A stretch of 64,000 bases of DNA, taken from the NCBI GenBank assembly GCA_048938295.1, contig JBHLMI010000011.1, positions 1,337 through 65,336 on the forward strand, in the 5' to 3' direction. Source of the DNA: Promethearchaeota archaeon (lineage in GTDB: Archaea > Asgardarchaeota > Hermodarchaeia > Hermodarchaeales > Hermodarchaeaceae). Each line of letters opens with the position of its first letter. Position 1 is the stretch's first letter. Shown piece after piece: positions 52,267-61,241 of this stretch. The position numbers and the translations under genes were made by a program. The notes under the pieces were generated by a model. That model saw nothing but the letters and a program-made list of their open reading frames with translations, was not told the origin of the DNA and did no database searches.

Positions 52267-53013
52267 TTATTCGAACAGGGTGGTGTCCAGGCTTGCTTTT
52301 AATTCGCTAATTATCTCTTTTACAGTGGCTTCCCGCAGATTCAACACTTCAGAAATACGTCTTATGCTGTCGTCATGGGAATCAATGGCATGGTGCAAGA
52401 CGCGGCGGGCATCGGGGCTATCAATTTGCTGCACCATCTTGCGGGTTTCTTTCATCACGCTGTTTCGAATGTAAAGGAGAACCAGTTTTTCTTCTTCGAG
52501 GTAATCGAGGTGTTCATCTATATCTGTTAGAATCTCTGCTAAGTGATCGATTTTCCTCTCTTCTTTAGGATATTTGAAAAGTTCCTTCACTCGATTCAGG
52601 AAGGCTGCTGCCTTTTCAGAAAGGGTTTCTTGGTCTGGCTCTACATCAAAGGCTATTACTTTCTCTTTGAAGAGATGTGGACCGATGTTCACCATGATAG
52701 CGAGGCTCTTGTTTAAGAAGTAGATTCGCCGTTTGGGTCCTTGAGGGCTTGTTTCTTTAGCAGACTCAACGAGCTGTGCCTTTTCCATGATTTTAAGATG
52801 TTTGGCGACAAGTTGTTGACTTAAATTGAGGTCTTTGGCAAGCTGGAGAGGGTAATTGGGTTCTTGGCTTAAACGTTGGATAACTAGTCGGCGAATGGGG
52901 CTGTCTAAAATTCGCAAAATTGAATCGAGCTCGGTATCGCGTCTCGGTTTGACTCCAGTTTCCTTTCCTTTTTTGGAAGTTGATACAATCTTTTTTTTGC
53001 TCTTACTATTCAT
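52267..53013 (-). CDS. winged-helix (ArsR-like) transcriptional regulator with C-terminal domain
   Basis: LRILDSPIRRLVIQRLSQEPNYPLQLAKDLNLSQQLVAKHLKIMEKAQLV wHTH; adjacent to hsp20. Confidence 0.6.
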   Translation of the reverse strand: MNSKSKKKIVSTSKKGKETGVKPRRDTELDSILRILDSPIRRLVIQRLSQEPNYPLQLAKDLNLSQQLVAKHLKIMEKAQLVESAKETSPQGPKRRIYFLNKSLAIMVNIGPHLFKEKVIAFDVEPDQETLSEKAAAFLNRVKELFKYPKEERKIDHLAEILTDIDEHLDYLEEEKLVLLYIRNSVMKETRKMVQQIDSPDARRVLHHAIDSHDDSIRRISEVLNLREATVKEIISELKASLDTTLFE

Positions 53014-53109: not shown

Positions 53110-54804
53110 TCACGCTGTAACAACCTCAATTTTGAGTTTGGGTTTACTAATCACTTCACGTTGTTCTTTGAGGATGTTTCGGGCAATGTCTAAGGCTGTT
53201 TCATCATCGTAGACGCCTTGAGCGTTTTTCCGTGCTTCTTGGAGCATCTGACGCTGCACCTTGAGTTTCAAATCCCCAATGGTCAACGCACCAATACCAT
53301 AGTTTTCAGGAATTAGCTCACGAAAATCATCTGTAGGAGTTAGAGATTCGATTCCACTTGGAGGTACAGCATTTACATCCAATAGAATTTTTGTCCCTAA
53401 AACAGATTGCAGCTGTTCGAGTGATACTAATTGAATACCCGGAGAGCCAACAGCGAAAATAAGGTTAGCATCCTCTAGAAGTTCATGAAGGTCATCAGGT
53501 GAAGTTGATTGCACGCCTTCCACTTTATTACTCTCGATTGAGGCCCGGTGCGCTACTTCTCTGGCCCGGTCAATATTTCGTGAGGTTAATACTGTCAGCG
53601 CTCCACTCTTGGAAAGTAAATGAGCCACACTTTCTCCAACTGGTCCTGTACCTGCAAGAACTAACGCAATGTTACTTTTGAGTGAACCTTGGTTAAGTCT
53701 GCGCAGAGCTTCCTCAGCTTTGGCAACCATAGCCGCCGCCGTGGAAAATGCACCGTGTGGATCAATAATTACTGCCGTTTCGAAAGGTTTCACCATGGCC
53801 TTTTGAATTCTGTCTGCCATTTGACGAGCAAGGGAAACCTGACGTCCTCCAACAAAGAAGCAAAGATGCTTTACTCCCTTGGTTCCCCTTGAAAAGATAG
53901 CATCTTGGACTAAGTCTTGAATCCGATCAAGCGACACTCCAGAATATGGAACTACAACATCAAATCCTGCGTCGTACGCTACACAGATATCAAACGGGCT
54001 AGCGTGGTCATCCGCTTCTAGGAAAAAAAGAATGTCACTTAGTTTTGTTTTTGGGCGCTTAATCACTGGCACAACAGAAACCGAAGAAACTCCTGTGAGC
54101 TCCGTCATGCCTTTCATTTCCTCTTTTGGCACTTCTGAAAGAATTCGTTTGAAGCTTATAGGGACCACATCTACCTCCAAGGATTGCAAAAGTTCCATTA
54201 AACCTTGGAAATGTCTGGGGCTGCTCAAGTGAAACGTGGTTATTCGCTTCTTCTTAAGAAGTTCAGCTTGTTGTAAAATCCCCATAGTAATCCAGCTTTC
54301 ACGGATTCCAAATTGTACTTGTCTAATTTCCTCTTCAAGTTCATCGTGCAAGTACTGACCATAGGCGACAAGCCGATCTATTTTGTCTTGCACACTTGGA
54401 GTTATTTTTTCATCTGATAGGATTCTTAACCCGTCTAAGACCTCATTGCGCTTTTCCAGTTTCAACTTGATACTCCGTGAGAGGTATGAGTGAGCGAACT
54501 CGTCCATTTCAACCGCATAAAAAGGGATCTTTAATTTTGAGAATACATCCGCTACTGGGTTGTCTTCACGGAATTCCTTCAAGCTCCGCAGACCCAATTC
54601 ATCGGTGGCAAAATCTGGTGACTCTGATTCAGCAATCTGCTTGATCATATCGCAATAAGCCATTGAAGGGCGTTTTATTGCAGAAATCTTCGATTCAGAT
54701 TCAGAAGGAGGGGAATGAATGAGCCAAGGTTCGTCATAGGCCTTTCTAATTAGGAAGACCCGCAATTTTTTCCCACTTAAAGGGGCAAGCTCTAACGTTT
54801 TCAA
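53110..54804 (-). CDS. fusion protein: unknown ~270-aa N-terminal domain plus MtdA-like NAD(P)-dependent methylene-H4MPT/H4F dehydrogenase domain
   Basis: C-terminal half matches MtdA family (FDxxVxYDAGFD...FVGG...TAAAMVAKA...VLAGTGPVGESVA...GDLKLKVQR); N-terminal half has no recognised motif. Confidence 0.7.
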   Translation of the reverse strand: MKTLELAPLSGKKLRVFLIRKAYDEPWLIHSPPSESESKISAIKRPSMAYCDMIKQIAESESPDFATDELGLRSLKEFREDNPVADVFSKLKIPFYAVEMDEFAHSYLSRSIKLKLEKRNEVLDGLRILSDEKITPSVQDKIDRLVAYGQYLHDELEEEIRQVQFGIRESWITMGILQQAELLKKKRITTFHLSSPRHFQGLMELLQSLEVDVVPISFKRILSEVPKEEMKGMTELTGVSSVSVVPVIKRPKTKLSDILFFLEADDHASPFDICVAYDAGFDVVVPYSGVSLDRIQDLVQDAIFSRGTKGVKHLCFFVGGRQVSLARQMADRIQKAMVKPFETAVIIDPHGAFSTAAAMVAKAEEALRRLNQGSLKSNIALVLAGTGPVGESVAHLLSKSGALTVLTSRNIDRAREVAHRASIESNKVEGVQSTSPDDLHELLEDANLIFAVGSPGIQLVSLEQLQSVLGTKILLDVNAVPPSGIESLTPTDDFRELIPENYGIGALTIGDLKLKVQRQMLQEARKNAQGVYDDETALDIARNILKEQREVISKPKLKIEVVTA

Positions 54805-54960
54805 TTAATCACCTGCCTATATTAGGCAGTTAAGGCTTCTTCCCATCTGAGAAAAAGGCGATGAAAATTTATTTTAGATGAAAAAAGACAATTTTTATAG
54901 TCAAGCTCGTTGCCCAAGGCAAATTGTGAACTAGATCGGGGCAGATATCTTAAGTTCAAA

Positions 54961-56304
54961 TCATGTTTTTCGTTCTCCAGCTTCTCTAAATCTATAATCT
55001 GTATGAGCTGCACAAGAAACGCAGGGATCAAAACATCGAACAGCCATCATAGCCCGTTCAAGGATTTTTTCATTTGGCCAACCAAGATTTATGCAAGCAC
55101 TCATGACGTTTTGTACAATCACCGCTATCGCACGGGCATTAAGCTCTGTTGGCACTCGAATGTCGATATCTTTGATTCTGTTGCTACTATTTGTACTTAC
55201 TCGGTAAAGGAGAATTCCCCGTGGAGCTTCAACTGCACTAGCTCCGATTCTAGTTCCTGGTGTCAACCCAATTGAAGAGTCTTCATCTTTCGACCATTCT
55301 GTTTCCAACAGGTTGATTGCATTTGTGAGAGCGAATTCCATTTCGTCAATTCGAAGAAGCCCGGTTTGGAACAGGTTAGGCACTCCTATGTACGATTTCT
55401 TACTTTTCGTTGGCTTAGACTGAAGTACAGCTAGTCGGGCATAAGGCCCCGCTAAGAGATTCTTGGATTCGTCGTTTGATTTGATGTAGACAACTTTTGT
55501 GGGGGCATCTAACAGGTCCTGCTCCACTAAGTATTCAGAGAAATCATCACAGGCAACGGTTTCATGTGTTCCATCATCAGAAATGAAATGGACCTGATTA
55601 AGACCAGAAAACCGGTTGGCCTTTGTTTCAAAGGAGCTAATATAAAGTGGAAGAGGAAGTGCATAGTGTTGGATTTCCTCTTCGATTTCATCTAGTAGCG
55701 AATTGTAGTATTCTTTAGTCCATTTCACTCCCGAGAGCGTTGAAGAAAGTTGTTGGATAAGATCTTGCTGTTGAGTGCTATTGATGTTTTGAACGACTCC
55801 ACCTGGAATCAGGTTAAAGGCTAAATTAGTATTACCTGCTGTTGCGGTGATTAACGCTTCTGCACACTCGTATAATTTTGTAGCAATTGGTAGAACTCGT
55901 GGTTGCATGCGATCAATGCCAAGGATGTCTTGTCGAGAGATTTGGTTTGTAAGATACATCAAATCAGCCAAAGTAGAAAAGAACACACTATATGTGTGCG
56001 ATCGGATGATTTCTCCCAAGAGCGCCAGTTCGCGGATTAACTCGGCAATTGGGGGAATTGATACATCTGTAGTCGATTCAATTGCTTTTATTGCTCCTAT
56101 TCTATGGGCAACTGGACAAATTCCACAGATCCGCGGAACAATTTTTGGTAAGTCATTAATGTGTTGTCCAATTAGAACGTTCAAAAAGTCCCGTGCCGTT
56201 GGCATGTTATATACAACATTTGTTATGCGATCTTTGTCTCGCGTTACAATGAGCTTGCTTTCGCCTTCTATCCGTGTCATTGGTAAGGATAGTCGAATTT
56301 TCAT
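54961..56304 (-). CDS. mvhA: [NiFe] hydrogenase large subunit, F420-non-reducing (Mvh/Vhu, group 3c)
   Basis: N-terminal RICGICPVAH and C-terminal DPCVSCAAH Ni-Fe ligands with C-terminal extension; TRIEG start region. Confidence 0.9.
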   Translation of the reverse strand: MKIRLSLPMTRIEGESKLIVTRDKDRITNVVYNMPTARDFLNVLIGQHINDLPKIVPRICGICPVAHRIGAIKAIESTTDVSIPPIAELIRELALLGEIIRSHTYSVFFSTLADLMYLTNQISRQDILGIDRMQPRVLPIATKLYECAEALITATAGNTNLAFNLIPGGVVQNINSTQQQDLIQQLSSTLSGVKWTKEYYNSLLDEIEEEIQHYALPLPLYISSFETKANRFSGLNQVHFISDDGTHETVACDDFSEYLVEQDLLDAPTKVVYIKSNDESKNLLAGPYARLAVLQSKPTKSKKSYIGVPNLFQTGLLRIDEMEFALTNAINLLETEWSKDEDSSIGLTPGTRIGASAVEAPRGILLYRVSTNSSNRIKDIDIRVPTELNARAIAVIVQNVMSACINLGWPNEKILERAMMAVRCFDPCVSCAAHTDYRFREAGERKT

Positions 56305-57035
56305 TGTTTAAACTTCAGCTCCGGTTTTTGATATCTAAAAGCGAGAGCCGCATACTTACGAATGGCGTCGCTGACTTTTATGAGAGAGAAGAAATTAGCG
56401 AGAGTCGAGGGTAGATTCCGGTCTATGGCACCCATACAGCCATCACAGGGAGTGGCTCCCTTAATACAAAGGGCTTCACACCCTGCACGGGTTATTGGGC
56501 CTAAACAGAGTATTCCCTCGCGTAAAAAACAGCTTTGGGGAGGGCGTACGTTATGTAAGGACGTTATCTCAACATCAAATGCTTGATCTTGGGCAAACGG
56601 GCATTCTCCACACACGTTTTTGTCAGGGAGTTCGATTTCAGAACCATCAATTGCGCTCATCAACAGATTTCCAAGTAACTTTCGTGGTGGCGGACAGCCA
56701 GGTAATGACATGTATAAGTCAACGAATTTACTGATGGGATCTATACGCATGTTGGGGGATTGGCTCATTATTCCACCGAGAACGGCACAGCTTCCCAAAG
56801 CGATGATTTTGGTTCCTGCGGTCCATAGTCTTCGAAGAAGTTCCGCGTCTTCATCTCGAGTGACTCCACCTTCTACAAATGCGATATCTAAATCCGTGTC
56901 AACTTGAACATCAGAGATTAATCGAAACACACGAATATCAACTGATTTAAGGAGTTCAGGGAATAGGGCGCTACCAAGTATGGCAAACATACACCCGCTA
57001 CAGGAGTTTAGTTGAAGAAAACCAATCTTAGTCAT
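56301..57035 (-). CDS. mvhG: [NiFe] hydrogenase small subunit (MvhG-type)
   Basis: NSCSGC proximal cluster motif, GCPP, additional Cys clusters; overlaps mvhA by ATGA. Confidence 0.85.
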   Translation of the reverse strand: MTKIGFLQLNSCSGCMFAILGSALFPELLKSVDIRVFRLISDVQVDTDLDIAFVEGGVTRDEDAELLRRLWTAGTKIIALGSCAVLGGIMSQSPNMRIDPISKFVDLYMSLPGCPPPRKLLGNLLMSAIDGSEIELPDKNVCGECPFAQDQAFDVEITSLHNVRPPQSCFLREGILCLGPITRAGCEALCIKGATPCDGCMGAIDRNLPSTLANFFSLIKVSDAIRKYAALAFRYQKPELKFKQ

Positions 57036-59563
57036 TAGCCTAATAGCTCCTCTAATTCAGTGGAAAATTGATTGACCTGGTTCGCGAACACGTGACCTTC
57101 AACGGCTGACACATTCAATACGCGTACACGTTTTTGTAGTTCGTCTCCATAAAAATCTGCGAGAACACCAATTCGTGTCTGAGCCTTCTTGATACCCTCA
57201 AAGAACCGGCAAGCTGTTTCATGACAGCCAACAACCATAACACCATCAAATCCGTGGTTTAACGCTGTTATTACATAATTTGCATCGATTGAACCCGCGC
57301 ATGGCAGTCTAATGACCATTGCACCAGGATCATAGTCCAGTCGACGAATGCCTGCATTATCCACTGCCGGGTATCCACATGAGTTGCAGGAAAACACAAT
57401 TATTCGGGGGGAGGCTGTGCTCATTGAGAGGGCATTCATTGCAGCTTGAACCTCCTCCTGAATTGGAGGGGAAGCCAGAGCTCCGGTTGGGCATATTGCG
57501 ATGCAGGCTCCACAGCCTTCACATTTTAGCGTATCGATACGAAGTGTGTCAGCTATGATGGCGAGAGCGTTAAAGGGACAGGACTCTACACAGAGATTAC
57601 AAAGCCCACATTTTTCTTGATTAATTTGAATTGGTATGTCCCCTGCAGGGAGGCTATCTTTTCCTAATAGAAGAAGAACTTCTAATGCGGTATCTCGAGA
57701 ATCTGCTACTAAGTCGGCATAAGCTTTAGGACCAGTTATAGACCCACAAGCCCAAATACCTGAGGATAAGCTCTTTGGGTCAATGAAACCTCGTCTATCC
57801 AAGGAAAAATTCGTCATACTACGAAGGGTTAGCTGTTGGTCTCCTGGCGTCATACCCATATTGAGAACAATAAGATCTGCTGGGAATGAATTTGAATCAG
57901 TTTGGATTAAGCGTTTATGCCCCCGATGAATGATCTTAATGCTTTCACAAAAGTGAATATGAGAATATTCTGGGATGAAGGTGCTTCGATCAGGGGGAAT
58001 TAAGGCTATCTGGTAAAGGACATTGATGGAAGTATTGGGCGCCTTTTTTTCTACAATCTCTAGGTATTTGAGCGCGAGGTTACAGCAGTAGTTTGAACAA
58101 GCCTTGGTTCGGTTCTGACATTGAAGAACAATTATGGAACGGGCAGGTTGGCCGGTTGTTGGGCAGATTATATTGCCTCCTGTTGGTCCATCAGGCGCTA
58201 GCATACGTTCAAATTCGGATGAAGTGATAATATCCTTAGCAGGGTTATATTGAATTGCTCCTTGAGATGGCAAGGTTTTAGGATCGCATACTTCTGCGCC
58301 TGTTGCAAGAATTATGGCACCAACCGTGAACTTCTTGGTTACAGGTTCTTGATCAAGATTAATCGCTTTAGATGGGCATGCTTTTTCGCATTTTCGGCAT
58401 GTCCGGCAAAAATCAATATCCTCCTGTTCAATGACGGGTCTACTAGGATATGCGGCAGGGCAAGGCACATGGATGAGTTTACGTTGGCTAATATGGTACT
58501 CAAATGCATCTGGACGAGACTCAGGACACGTATCGACACAAGAGCCGCACATTATGCATTTTGATAAATCGACATATCGGGGCTGTTGCAGAGCAGTAAT
58601 CTCATAATTGCCAATTGTTCCTGAAATATCGGAGAGTTCGGTATTAGTAAGAATTCGTATGTTCCCTGAAAGCATAACTGAGGATACATCCTCAGCAATC
58701 ATACATGGACCACAATCGATAGCCCCATAGATGCTTTCCCATCGCCGCGCGATTCCACCTAGACATGACTCTTTCTCTAGCAGAATAATGGAATAGTTGG
58801 ATTGAGCCAAAACCTTGGCAACCTCTACTCCAGCTAGTCCACCACCAATGATGGCGGCACTTTTCCGAATTGGTAACGTACGCTTTGGAATTGAGACCCG
58901 ATGCCGGAGCATCTCAGCGCTGGCCCGTATTAGAAGTAACGCTTTTTCTGTGGCTTGCTCGGGTTTATTTCTATGAACCCAAGCACAATGTTCACGTATG
59001 TTCGCGAATTCAATGGGTATATCCAATTGCATTCGAATAGCGGTAAACATTTGGCTGTGAAGGTGAGGGGAGCAGGCTGCAATTACAAGATTATTCAGAA
59101 AATACCGATCACACCATGCTTTTAGTTTCTCAACGTTTTCTAACAAACATAAATGCTGAAACACCATTGTACGTTCAACATATGGCAGATCATTGACTTT
59201 CTCCATAAGCTCCCCGACATTAATGGCTTGATGAATTTCCTCCCCACAAGAACAGACAATTACGCCAATACGGAAAATTGCTCCTCGTGAATCCGCTTCG
59301 CTCAGATCGATTGCCTCTCCGGCCATCAATTGTTCCTTGGCGGTCATTAGGCGGATTGCATTTGTTCCTGCGGCGGAAAGTTGATAGAAGCCATTCCGTT
59401 TCTCTATGAACCCCTCCAGTTTTTTGAGATGATAATTGAAGAGACCTGTTTTCGTGAGCCCTAATCTTTTCATCAAATCATTATAGGTGATTAGTCGTTC
59501 AGCGTCTAATATTCGAAGAATTTGTTCGCGGAGTGGATGGGCCAAAGCCGCATATACATTCAT
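57035..59563 (-). CDS. hdrA: HdrA-like flavoprotein fused to MvhD, with N-terminal winged-helix domain
   Basis: Residues 1-75 wHTH (LREQILRILDAERLITYNDLMKRLGLTKTGLFNYHLKKLEGFIE); then HdrA hallmarks RIGVIVCSCGEEI, AACSPHLH, FAD GGGLAGVEVA, ferredoxin CxxCxxCxxxCP x3; C-terminal MvhD domain (FSCNSCGYPAVDNAG...LPCAGSID). Confidence 0.85.
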   Translation of the reverse strand: MNVYAALAHPLREQILRILDAERLITYNDLMKRLGLTKTGLFNYHLKKLEGFIEKRNGFYQLSAAGTNAIRLMTAKEQLMAGEAIDLSEADSRGAIFRIGVIVCSCGEEIHQAINVGELMEKVNDLPYVERTMVFQHLCLLENVEKLKAWCDRYFLNNLVIAACSPHLHSQMFTAIRMQLDIPIEFANIREHCAWVHRNKPEQATEKALLLIRASAEMLRHRVSIPKRTLPIRKSAAIIGGGLAGVEVAKVLAQSNYSIILLEKESCLGGIARRWESIYGAIDCGPCMIAEDVSSVMLSGNIRILTNTELSDISGTIGNYEITALQQPRYVDLSKCIMCGSCVDTCPESRPDAFEYHISQRKLIHVPCPAAYPSRPVIEQEDIDFCRTCRKCEKACPSKAINLDQEPVTKKFTVGAIILATGAEVCDPKTLPSQGAIQYNPAKDIITSSEFERMLAPDGPTGGNIICPTTGQPARSIIVLQCQNRTKACSNYCCNLALKYLEIVEKKAPNTSINVLYQIALIPPDRSTFIPEYSHIHFCESIKIIHRGHKRLIQTDSNSFPADLIVLNMGMTPGDQQLTLRSMTNFSLDRRGFIDPKSLSSGIWACGSITGPKAYADLVADSRDTALEVLLLLGKDSLPAGDIPIQINQEKCGLCNLCVESCPFNALAIIADTLRIDTLKCEGCGACIAICPTGALASPPIQEEVQAAMNALSMSTASPRIIVFSCNSCGYPAVDNAGIRRLDYDPGAMVIRLPCAGSIDANYVITALNHGFDGVMVVGCHETACRFFEGIKKAQTRIGVLADFYGDELQKRVRVLNVSAVEGHVFANQVNQFSTELEELLG

Positions 59564-59705
59564 CTTGGGGTCCTTCTCGTGATTTCTGTGGAGAAATACC
59601 TTAGATAACTCTAATTGTCAAGAAACATAACTTAGACAAAAAAGCTTGCCCTGTTTAAAAAGGCAAGCAATGGCTGCAACTATTCTTGCTACTTCTGATG
59701 AGAAA

Positions 59706-59951
59706 TTACATCTTTTTACTCTCAGAAGTAGGAATGGGAGCACGATAGCGCGTTTGATAGCAATTGCGGCAAATGTAGCGAGGCATAACGTTAAGCGCAC
59801 CACACCATGGGCATTTCCAAAAATCGATCGTTGTTAGTGTCACATCGGCCTCACGTCGGATATAACGACAATGCTGGCATAAACGTAAATGAATAAAATT
59901 TGATACTCCACATTTCGGACACGTCCAATACTTCAAATTCCACCACCCCAC
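59706..59951 (-). CDS. double zinc-ribbon protein
   Basis: CPKCG...CQHC and CPWCG...CRNC pairs in 81 aa. Confidence 0.55.
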   Translation of the reverse strand: MGWWNLKYWTCPKCGVSNFIHLRLCQHCRYIRREADVTLTTIDFWKCPWCGALNVMPRYICRNCYQTRYRAPIPTSESKKM

Positions 59952-60144
59952 GAGGATCTCTTATTGCTACTTTCTCATTAAATCTCCTAAGTTGTGCTAT
60001 AGGATGCGCGGGTTTCATAGCGACTCTATATTGATTTCAGCCGAATCTTCACATCCTAGCATATAGTAGGAGGGAACGAAAAAACAAAAACACTCTGAAA
60101 AACATCATTTCCAAAGTGTGACAAATAATTTTATCTTGAGCTTG

Positions 60145-60160
60145 TTGTCAATCTTGACAA
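60145..60160. promoter_or_regulatory. perfect palindrome TTGTCAA-tc-TTGACAA upstream of zinc-ribbon/hdrA-mvhDGA gene string
   Basis: 7-bp arms, 2-nt spacer; shares TTGAC half-site with 16651-16722 array. Confidence 0.35.
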
Positions 60161-60244: not shown

Positions 60245-60571
60245 TCATTTTATTTGTTCAAGTTTCTCTAGCATTTGTTGGCGATATCGTTCTAAAGCGG
60301 TTTTCCCCTCATCAGAGAGTTGGATGAGCGTGTGGGGAATTTTATCAACGAATTCTTTGGTGATCCTAACATAGCCGACGGTTTCCAGTTTGCTGAGATG
60401 AGAAGAGAGATTACCGCGCGTGAGGCCCGTGCGGCGTAAGATGAACAGGAAATCTGCACTCTCGACTTCTTTGAGAATGGTGAGGATTTTCAGACGTGCT
60501 GGCGAATGGACAATAGGATCAACATCCTCATCCTCGATGGAAGAGAATGGGGGGGAGTTAGAGGAGGGCAT
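60245..60571 (-). CDS. winged-helix (ArsR/PadR-like) transcriptional regulator
   Basis: ARLKILTILKEVESADFLFILRRTGLTRGNLSSHLSKLETVGYVRITKEF; start placed at internal ATG 60571 (preceded by ggtga) because upstream part of track ORF 60245..60829 overlaps membrane-protein gene in another frame. Confidence 0.65.
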   Translation of the reverse strand: MPSSNSPPFSSIEDEDVDPIVHSPARLKILTILKEVESADFLFILRRTGLTRGNLSSHLSKLETVGYVRITKEFVDKIPHTLIQLSDEGKTALERYRQQMLEKLEQIK

Positions 60572-61241
60572 GGGGCGTCTCACCTTCAATGGACTCGGTG
60601 TGTTCGACTGGATAGTGGTGCAGGAATCGGAGAAACAGGATAGTGCCGAATAAGAGAGCGAGGAGCCCAATGGCGGCGTATTGGATGGCAAGGGTTGTGA
60701 AAAACGCCGCATATGCGCTGGGAAAACTGAGAGGCAACCATGGCACGAGAATCCCAATGAGAGGCGGAAGAACCGCAAATAGATAATAGCGGGCAACGTG
60801 GTATTTGCGGGCGATGATAAAGAGCCCAATGGAAATTAAGACGCTAAAGGTGACGGGGGCAATCCAGATTAACCAGAAGAACAGTCCATCATATCCGGAG
60901 AAGATGAATAAGACCACCGGCGGAAGGATGAGCAGAATCATAATCGAGACCAGCACAAGGACTGCTGTGCGTGTACTCGTGGCTTCCAAGGGCTTGGGCT
61001 TGACATATCCGACGCGGGGATAGACCCACCGTTGTTTAGCTCGCTCAATGAGCGGTCTATATAGCAGGGGATTAAGGGTCAGGATCATAACCCACAGGAA
61101 TGTGATATTGTGGGCAAGCAGGGTGAGAAGGGCAGCCAAGCCAAGAAGAATGACGGCCATGAAAAGGTCAGCGAGTCCATCCTCATAATAGGCTTGTTGG
61201 ACTTTCAGAGCGAGTGCATCTAATTCTGTGGAGGTTGACAT
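60558..61241 (-). CDS. polytopic membrane protein, operonic with wHTH regulator
   Basis: 227 aa, 6 TM; 14-nt overlap with downstream regulator gene. Confidence 0.6.
   Translation of the reverse strand: MSTSTELDALALKVQQAYYEDGLADLFMAVILLGLAALLTLLAHNITFLWVMILTLNPLLYRPLIERAKQRWVYPRVGYVKPKPLEATSTRTAVLVLVSIMILLILPPVVLFIFSGYDGLFFWLIWIAPVTFSVLISIGLFIIARKYHVARYYLFAVLPPLIGILVPWLPLSFPSAYAAFFTTLAIQYAAIGLLALLFGTILFLRFLHHYPVEHTESIEGETPHALL

Follow-up and report, generated by a model that had tools for sequence, protein, structure and literature searches.

We analysed a 64,000-nucleotide stretch of Promethearchaeota DNA (contig JBHLMI010000011.1, hereafter the window) and focused on a gene in which the HdrA-MvhD subunit of a predicted [NiFe] hydrogenase is fused to an N-terminal winged helix-turn-helix (wHTH) domain of the ArsR/SmtB fold. 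A palindrome of the form TGACAA-N6-TTGTCA recurs upstream of such fusion genes and is nearly absent upstream of the hdrA genes without wHTH that we scored. Our favoured reading, to which we give a probability of about 55 %, is that the protein would act as a self-regulating bifunctional 'trigger enzyme' of the kind represented by PutA, BirA and RbkR. Its enzyme part, predicted to be intact, and a DNA-binding-type domain share one polypeptide, as in trigger enzymes. The gene and its parts are the following:

57035..59563, minus strand: wHTH-HdrA-MvhD gene, 842 amino acids plus stop (list of open reading frames, ORFs, and domain scans)
59324..59563, minus strand: ArsR/SmtB-fold wHTH, residues 1-80 (Pfam, AlphaFold2, Foldseek, match to 1Y0U)
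59273..59323, minus strand: linker, residues 81-97, variable, a predicted flexible tether
57464..59272, minus strand: HdrA core, residues 98-700 (5ODC_A match, NCBIfam HdrA2, invariant cysteines)
57044..57403, minus strand: MvhD (FlpD) domain, residues 721-840 (Pfam FlpD PF02662, 111 bits)
59571..59576, minus strand: Shine-Dalgarno-like GAAGGA upstream of the wHTH start codon

The preliminary description of this DNA had placed the ORF at 57035-59563, with a true ATG at 59563, and had read its first 75 or so residues as an ArsR-like wHTH in frame with an HdrA core and an MvhD domain; the ORF and its start are confirmed, and Pfam, AlphaFold2 and 5ODC_A agree on the domains. HdrA-MvhD fusions are already known from methanogens (HdrA2). 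The HdrA core begins at R98 (RIGVIVCSCG), the residue from which the NCBIfam HdrA models align onward, and is composed of an N-terminal 4-Cys domain, a domain of the flavin adenine dinucleotide (FAD)/TrxR-like type, and inserted and C-terminal 2x[4Fe-4S] ferredoxin domains, two ferredoxin domains being detected by Pfam in the 842-residue protein. The NCBIfam equivalog cutoffs were not reached by the HdrA models (355 bits vs 1300 and, for HdrA2, 527 bits vs 1100). The full-length AlphaFold model, with a predicted local distance difference test score (pLDDT) of 87, has its best structural match in 5ODC_A, the HdrA of the Mvh-Hdr complex (E 3.5e-55, TMt 0.79). In an alignment of 62 full-length homologues, every cluster cysteine of the HdrA part and its GGG-AG motif (G240-G245) are invariant, as are four of the [2Fe-2S] cysteines of MvhD (C726, C729, C755 and C785), a fifth, C780, being kept in at least 90 %; judged by these residues, the enzyme part is intact. 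The linker is the most variable segment of this alignment (column entropy 1.90; identity 20 % in distant homologues), and its pLDDT in the full-length model is 55-64, falling below 50 at residues 87-94. Annotation pipelines label the protein 'hydrogenase iron-sulfur subunit' and its contig-end fragments 'transcriptional regulator'.

A Pfam search and an AlphaFold model of the N-terminal domain had been proposed as checks in the preliminary description. Scanned alone against Pfam, residues 1-75 match DUF7347 (PF24038; 57.3 bits, cutoff 27.6), HTH_20 (27.9, cutoff 27) and HTH_24 (25.0, cutoff 21.9), all above cutoff; HTH_5 gives no match, and in the full protein DUF7347 spans residues 3-71. The model of the domain alone (pLDDT 90.9) has the ArsR topology, in the order a1-a2-a3-aR-b1-b2-a5, including the a5 dimerisation helix. 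The solved structures that Foldseek ranks closest to it belong, with few exceptions, to dimeric DNA-binding repressors of ArsR/SmtB and MarR/YodB type (TM 0.66-0.82), among them CadC, SmtB, BigR, HlyU, NolR, SqrR, PagR and YodB. By sequence it is closest to 1Y0U, a putative ArsR protein from Archaeoglobus fulgidus (E 9e-7, 41 % identity over 64 columns), and H45 aligns with the histidine in the S-x-H-L motif that ArsR and PagR have in their recognition helix. The domain is also basic, with a mean net charge of +4.4 and an isoelectric point of 9.4, compared with 7.5 for the remainder of the protein. To judge from these matches, the wHTH is a relative of the ArsR/SmtB family rather than a curated member of it. 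An exhaustive profile search yielded 3027 relatives (E <= 1e-3); most of the best 150 of them are proteins of 90-450 amino acids with the domain at the N-terminus, and ten relatives that were scanned also matched ArsR-type models and included tandem-wHTH and TPR fusions. Their size, domain position and ArsR co-matches give the profile of a regulator family. A word-indexed search with the same profile returned only contig-end fragments of the fusion itself.

The preliminary description, aware of no HdrA with a wHTH, had left it possible that the fusion was unique, and had proposed a survey of homologues for the same extension. The survey returned the 62 full-length homologues, spread across Asgard lineages. 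One protein from a Promethearchaeota metagenome-assembled genome (MAG) is 100 % identical to the window protein, and about 65 further proteins of 838-885 amino acids carry PF24038 and align over 98-100 % of the query, at identities between 37 % and 80 %. By source label they come from Hod-, Hermod-, Loki-, Thor-, Odin-, Hel- and Jordarchaeia, one MAG being labelled Thermoproteota; a cluster look-up gave MAGs only and no cultured organism. By this distribution the fusion is a clade-wide Asgard architecture. Alignments with generic HdrA-MvhD proteins from bacteria and from other archaea begin at query residue ~98 only, and the Asgards also have a second paralogue, of ~783 amino acids, without wHTH. 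Column entropy in the 62-sequence alignment is lowest for the wHTH (1.17, the other domains 1.33-1.51); R12, T39, G40, N43, H45, L46, Y60, L62 and G66 are invariant.

Several observations indicate that the wHTH is translated. Almost all members start at the same N-terminal position, a Shine-Dalgarno-like purine core occurs at -20 to -4 in 57/67 orthologues (7/67 in a control window), and no methionine is found at positions 56-100 in 21/62 homologues, so that an internal start cannot be general. Internal initiation with the wHTH untranslated, which the preliminary description had named as a refuting outcome, is contradicted by these data. An annotation artefact, in which the wHTH would be untranslated, or a separate gene joined by a sequencing or gene-calling error, with Met73 as the true start, has next to no probability. 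Met73 is indeed present in 37/62 homologues, and one contig (L166, 2745-5187) carries the fusion gene as two ORFs, of 84 and 728 amino acids. However, 49 complete orthologues of at least 800 amino acids, from independent assemblies, have an unbroken frame, the same start and a Shine-Dalgarno sequence, and the wHTH is the domain most conserved at the protein level. We thus rejected the internal-start and artefact readings on the Shine-Dalgarno sequences and the missing internal methionines. As for L166, ~30 codons are gone, including the essential CxC motif, and a natural split into wHTH and HdrA (P0293/P0294) was rejected because a gene without this cluster motif is broken; the break is either an assembly error or a pseudogene.

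Upstream sequences were compared in metagenomic loci gathered by wHTH alignment (80 loci, of which 74 HdrA fusions). The upstream set consisted of 67 non-redundant wHTH-hdrA regions, from -160 to -1. When all 5-mer inverted dyads with spacers of 0-14 were enumerated without bias, GACAA-N6-TTGTC turned up in 5/67 regions (shuffle mean 0.01, maximum 1), as the only dyad containing G/C among the top results. Scored as TGACAA-N6-TTGTCA with at most 2 mismatches (consensus TGACAACAATATTTGTCA), a site is present in 38/67 regions, 19 of them with at most 1 mismatch, against 0.62 per set in 500 shuffles. Spacer 6 alone is enriched: the other spacers from 0 to 10 give 0-8 regions and everted arrangements 1-14. 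The same scoring upstream of other ORFs of these loci gives 14/254 (5.5 %).

Genes for HdrA without the wHTH provided a further control, taken from a profile scan of genome contigs (mostly generic HdrA, with at least 3 wHTH loci among them): the site lies upstream of only 1/75 hdrA genes without wHTH, and in four Asgard paralogues without wHTH the best upstream score is 5-6 mismatches. Counting intergenic sites with at most 1 mismatch, we found 60 (12 perfect) in 60 kb of wHTH loci and 0 in 63 kb of control loci. In position, a TATA-like octamer starts 9-11 nucleotides before the first site in 18/38 loci, i.e. the site begins 1-3 bp past the box, and in 12 loci a second site follows exactly 21 nucleotides downstream. 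The invariance of recognition helix and operator at 37 % protein identity, together with the absence of the operator where the wHTH is lacking, supports the pairing of the two, short of proof.

Ten of the gathered wHTH loci (L156-L165) hold another fusion, in which the same type of wHTH (recognition helix TGKLSFHIKNL) is joined to a membrane domain of ~170 amino acids. They have a conserved upstream sequence of their own, without TGACAA-N6-TTGTCA, so these membrane-fused paralogues give no independent support.

The palindrome could also be folded as an RNA, a 6-bp stem with a 6-nucleotide loop located between TATA box and start codon, and would then be a 5'-untranslated stem-loop acting on stability or translation, the wHTH being unrelated or RNA-binding. 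We consider this very improbable. Only 9/53 half-site deviations are still pairable, a full stem is possible in 6/38 instances, and the 3/14 pair is pairable in 13/38; bases rather than pairing are conserved, without compensatory change, and no Rfam family matches in the window. The half-sites degenerate independently, as expected of a protein-binding DNA palindrome and not of an RNA hairpin. Moreover, part of a site that begins 1-3 nucleotides past a TATA-like box should precede the point where transcription starts. On the lack of covariation we rejected the reading as an RNA hairpin.

In the window, copies of the operator and a further palindrome were located relative to the fusion gene, to an upstream zinc-ribbon ORF and to a downstream MtdA-like gene:

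59603..59620, minus-strand reading: O-hdrA, TGACAATTAGAGTTATCT, 2 mismatches, starting 57 nucleotides upstream of the ATG
54886..54903, minus-strand reading: O-mtd, TGACTATAAAAATTGTCT, 2 mismatches, 99 nucleotides upstream of the MtdA-like gene
60119..60136, minus-strand reading: operator-like site AGATAAAATTATTTGTCA, 2 mismatches, upstream of the zinc-ribbon ORF
60145..60160: palindrome TTGTCAATCTTGACAA, TTGTCAA-TC-TTGACAA, everted hexamers, not conserved
53110..54804, minus strand: MtdA-like methylene-tetrahydromethanopterin (H4MPT) dehydrogenase, 564 amino acids (Pfam Mpt_N; 1LU9, E 9e-40)
59706..59951, minus strand: double zinc-ribbon ORF (~75 amino acids conserved), syntenic upstream of hdrA in Hod-type loci only
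59644..59668, minus strand: terminator-like hairpin with T6, between the zinc-ribbon ORF and the hdrA promoter, kept in L002, L086 and L088

Counterparts of O-hdrA stand at the same position in the Hod-type relatives L086 and L088, with 1 mismatch each. Where the MtdA-like gene is co-directional, a site lies at -99 to -103 in 4/4 loci, perfect in L004, with 1 mismatch in L002 and L006 and with 2 in the window. In Loki-/Jord-type loci (L099, L149, L003, L008), a divergent operon is headed by a ~210-residue paralogue of the N-terminal extension of the MtdA-like protein (26 % identity, E 1e-14), and the sites are found at -86 to -113 of this first gene. A third type of partner occurs in L107, L116, L119, L137, L144 and L146, where an FrhB/FdhB-like gene (~370 amino acids, N-terminal 2x[4Fe-4S] domain) is found ~1.3 kb upstream of hdrA. 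Ending ~100 nucleotides before the wHTH-hdrA gene, it probably heads the operon; its product is probably an additional subunit in some lineages. These six loci lack a proximal hdrA site and have the operator at -84 to -93 of the FrhB/FdhB-like gene, often with a second one at about -261.

The preliminary description had instead pointed to the palindrome at 60145 as a possible binding site of the N-terminal domain. It is present at 60145-60160, upstream of the gene string, with arms of 7 nucleotides and a 2-nucleotide centre without self-complementarity. That the wHTH binds there and controls the gene string from there is improbable. The palindrome does contain the TTGTCA/TGACAA hexamers of the conserved operator and lies 8 nucleotides from the operator-like site at 60119-60136, but its geometry is everted (TTGTCA-N4-TGACAA vs TGACAA-N6-TTGTCA), and this arrangement with a 4-nucleotide spacer is not enriched family-wide (3/67). 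It was found in 0/166 related loci; among the three closest relatives it is not conserved in L002 and L088 and is half-recognisable only in L086. It stands 582 nucleotides upstream of the ATG, with the zinc-ribbon ORF and the terminator-like hairpin in between, and its pattern with at most 2 mismatches occurs twice in the window, where 0.43 is expected and 11/100 shuffles reach 2, i.e. not more often than by chance. It was rejected as an operator for its everted, unconserved form and its absence from every other locus. The autoregulatory role that had been suggested along with it gains support from the conserved operator, and the particular binding site offered, absent from relatives, does not stand.

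Taken together, these results point to the following scheme. The HdrA-MvhD subunit belongs to an Asgard [NiFe] hydrogenase module that also comprises MvhG and MvhA; it bears a tethered ArsR/SmtB-type wHTH, and the two wHTH domains of an HdrA dimer would bind the 6-6-6 palindrome, whose half-site centres are 12 bp apart. The bound sites would be at the promoters of its own operon, of the MtdA-like gene, of the extension paralogue and of the FrhB-like gene. Many archaeal repressors use a site just downstream of the TATA box to block polymerase recruitment; binding at this place would likewise block recruitment of RNA polymerase, and the enzyme would thereby repress its own synthesis. Relief of repression would be set by the state of the enzyme, i.e. 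its assembly, cofactor loading or redox state. We infer the wHTH to be the operator-binding protein, repression to be the effect, and the signal to be of this nature.

Several points weigh against this scheme. The link between wHTH and operator rests on co-occurrence. The wHTH scores 24.4 bits with the NCBIfam ArsR/SmtB model NF033788 (HTH_metalloreg), below the cutoff of 55. Residues 1-97 contain no cysteine and only H9 and H45 as histidines, and the a3N and a5 metal-site residues are missing; with no sensor residues of its own in the wHTH, any signal would have to be supplied by the enzyme part. Within 160 nucleotides, 29/67 loci have no site with at most 2 mismatches, even if many of these have one further upstream or before the preceding or partner gene; no site was found in the locus sequence of L005 and L089, nor, for hdrA itself, in that of L004. 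The 67 loci are phylogenetically related, and a proximal site occurs in ~11/20 clades defined at 80 % N-terminal identity. The control loci are less AT-rich than the wHTH loci (0.50 vs 0.67), and the AT-matched control set is small. In the window, matches with at most 2 mismatches number 6 against 3.8 expected, which is not above chance, and all three intergenic copies carry 2 mismatches. Only the location of these copies is telling: three of the six matches lie in coding sequence, and all three intergenic ones are in the hdrA neighbourhood.

The main rival holds that the wHTH is a docking module for a partner (e.g. the N-terminal extension that the MtdA-like protein carries, or else the FrhB-like protein) or an aid to HdrA dimerisation, another factor binding the operator; we regard it as possible, though the less likely outcome. 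A precedent that also counts against the favoured reading is BamF, an MvhD-like adaptor of class II benzoyl-CoA reductase, whose wHTH interfaces with BamI (bioRxiv 10.64898/2026.04.10.717634) and so has a protein-contact role within a related bifurcating complex. The unusual conserved partners, with their unexplained extra domains, would need docking sites, the invariant surface residues of the wHTH could equally make a protein interface, and two other wHTH regulator genes lie near in the window (60245-60829, minus strand, HTH_34; 52267-53013, minus strand, HTH_5/ArsR-type). On the other hand, the wHTH retains the full ArsR repressor topology with its a5 dimerisation helix, the His/Asn pattern of the recognition helix and the basic charge, and the variable, low-confidence tether is unlike a fixed docking module. 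The operator is moreover tied to wHTH loci (1/75 hdrA genes without wHTH; none in the 63 kb control). No separate regulator gene recurs across the loci examined, and the two wHTH genes flanking the cluster are syntenic in no other locus, which disfavours them as the trans factor.

A more specific form of the trigger-enzyme reading, which we advance only tentatively and hold to be rather unlikely, is that the flavin/Fe-S enzyme, through its redox or assembly state, has direct control over operator binding by its own wHTH. The hydrogenase module would then be a one-component sensor-regulator of H2/ferredoxin redox poise, ancestral to much of the Asgard archaea, with a small regulon under its control that leads from H2 to one-carbon (C1) metabolism on H4MPT.

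The remaining genes of the cluster follow the fusion gene closely:

56301..57035, minus strand: MvhG-like [NiFe] hydrogenase small subunit (ORF list and domain scans)
54961..56304, minus strand: MvhA-like [NiFe] hydrogenase large subunit (ORF list and domain scans)

The hdrA stop and the mvhG start overlap by 1 nucleotide (57035), and mvhG and mvhA by 4 (ATGA, 56301-56304), overlaps that suggest translational coupling of the three subunits. MvhG- and MvhA-like genes lie downstream of the fusion gene in 43/67 loci, while the genes upstream of it vary among genomes. No HdrB or HdrC Pfam family was found in the neighbourhoods of 7 loci, a location elsewhere in the genome being possible. The MtdA-like protein (560-565 amino acids) is linked to the fusion in most loci, across Asgard lineages; its gene is downstream in Hod-/Hermod-type loci and ~1 kb upstream and divergent in Loki-/Jord-type loci. 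It consists of a ~257-residue N-terminal extension without Pfam match and a C-terminal part of 290 amino acids that is a full homologue of MtdA (1LU9, NADP-dependent methylene-H4MPT dehydrogenase). This linkage suggests that H2 oxidation is coupled to the C1 branch on H4MPT via an HdrA without HdrBC nearby.

Further upstream, the zinc-ribbon protein has two RanBP2-like ribbons (W-x-C-x2-C ... C-x2-C) with sub-threshold Pfam scores. The AGATAA-N6-TTGTCA core at 60119-60136 and the hairpin after it are invariant in four Hod-type genomes. They belong to a non-coding block of ~75 nucleotides (60060-60136, minus strand), largely invariant in these genomes, in which the core is followed by an imperfect 12-bp hairpin and T-run (60090-60119) without Rfam match; lying upstream of the zinc-ribbon gene, the block may represent a leader, terminator or small RNA. 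Since the S/P-rich N-terminal half of the 194-residue ORF listed for the HTH_34 gene (60245-60829) overlaps with ORF 60558-61241, the true start of this gene probably lies further downstream.

Models of eukaryogenesis give a central place to hydrogen syntrophy. Papers on Asgards treat MvhADG-Hdr as a hydrogen enzyme of central importance. In the cultured MK-D1, it was described as the sole hydrogenase, by which H2 is transferred in syntrophy (PMC7015854), and among the metabolic genes of soil Asgards those for Hdr and group 3 hydrogenase rank with the most highly transcribed (PMC11291895). No regulation of Asgard MvhADG-Hdr genes is described in the literature searched. In line with the preliminary description, neither is a wHTH on HdrA, in papers on Asgard metabolism and in a survey of archaeal fusions, although subscription journals were thinly covered and an earlier mention is possible. 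The palindrome at wHTH-hdrA loci is new here; bifunctional enzyme-regulators as a kind were already known. If the trigger-enzyme reading is true, an electron-bifurcating enzyme joins the short list of enzymes doubling as transcription factors; under its redox-gated form, the protein would be the first case of a transcription factor among electron-bifurcating enzymes and, with its operator, the first defined pair of transcription factor and operator in Asgard archaea. The predicted regulon ties the hydrogenase to the MtdA-like dehydrogenase and the FrhB-like protein, which hints at the physiological partner of an HdrA lacking HdrBC nearby. The prediction is also compact: it concerns a soluble domain of 80-97 amino acids and an operator of 18 bp whose consensus, spacing and place in the promoter are defined.

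Among bacterial trigger enzymes, PutA (proline utilisation A), BirA and NadR carry an N-terminal DNA-binding domain on an enzyme and exert autogenous repression. In PutA, the redox state of the flavin decides whether the protein sits on DNA or at the place where it catalyses, the DNA-binding domain being a bacterial ribbon-helix-helix; the BirA switch is a dimerisation driven by the reaction intermediate. PutA is the model for the redox-gated reading of the Asgard protein. Among archaea, the riboflavin kinase/regulator RbkR combines a wHTH with an enzyme; its palindromic operators were predicted by comparative genomics and then validated, it acts on its own gene and on pathway partners, and the enzyme's own ligands modulate DNA binding (PMC5397151). 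The Asgard protein resembles RbkR as an archaeal wHTH-enzyme fusion with palindromes at its own and partner promoters. However, RbkR is a small soluble kinase, whereas the enzyme here is predicted to be a 760-residue FAD/iron-sulfur electron-bifurcating subunit of a multi-subunit hydrogenase, and the two wHTH families are unrelated beyond the fold.

The wHTH itself shares fold, a5 helix and x-H-L motif with CadC (1U2W), SmtB (8QKF), BigR (3PQJ), HlyU (4K2E), SqrR (6O8M) and 1Y0U, at TM 0.66-0.78; ArsR/SmtB repressors are stand-alone proteins of ~100 amino acids with metal or thiol sites, whereas the Asgard domain has no such sites and is joined to an enzyme. The enzyme part is like the HdrA of 5ODC in core fold, FAD site and Fe-S cysteines, its MvhD fusion is as in methanogen HdrA2, and MvhG and MvhA are adjacent; canonical HdrA, by contrast, begins at about position 98 of the window protein and works with HdrBC, which is not encoded near the loci examined. 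Finally, BamF likewise has a wHTH inside an MvhD/HdrA-type bifurcating complex, but there the domain is internal to an enlarged adaptor, whereas that of HdrA is ArsR-like, is tethered at the N-terminus and comes with a conserved palindrome in the DNA.

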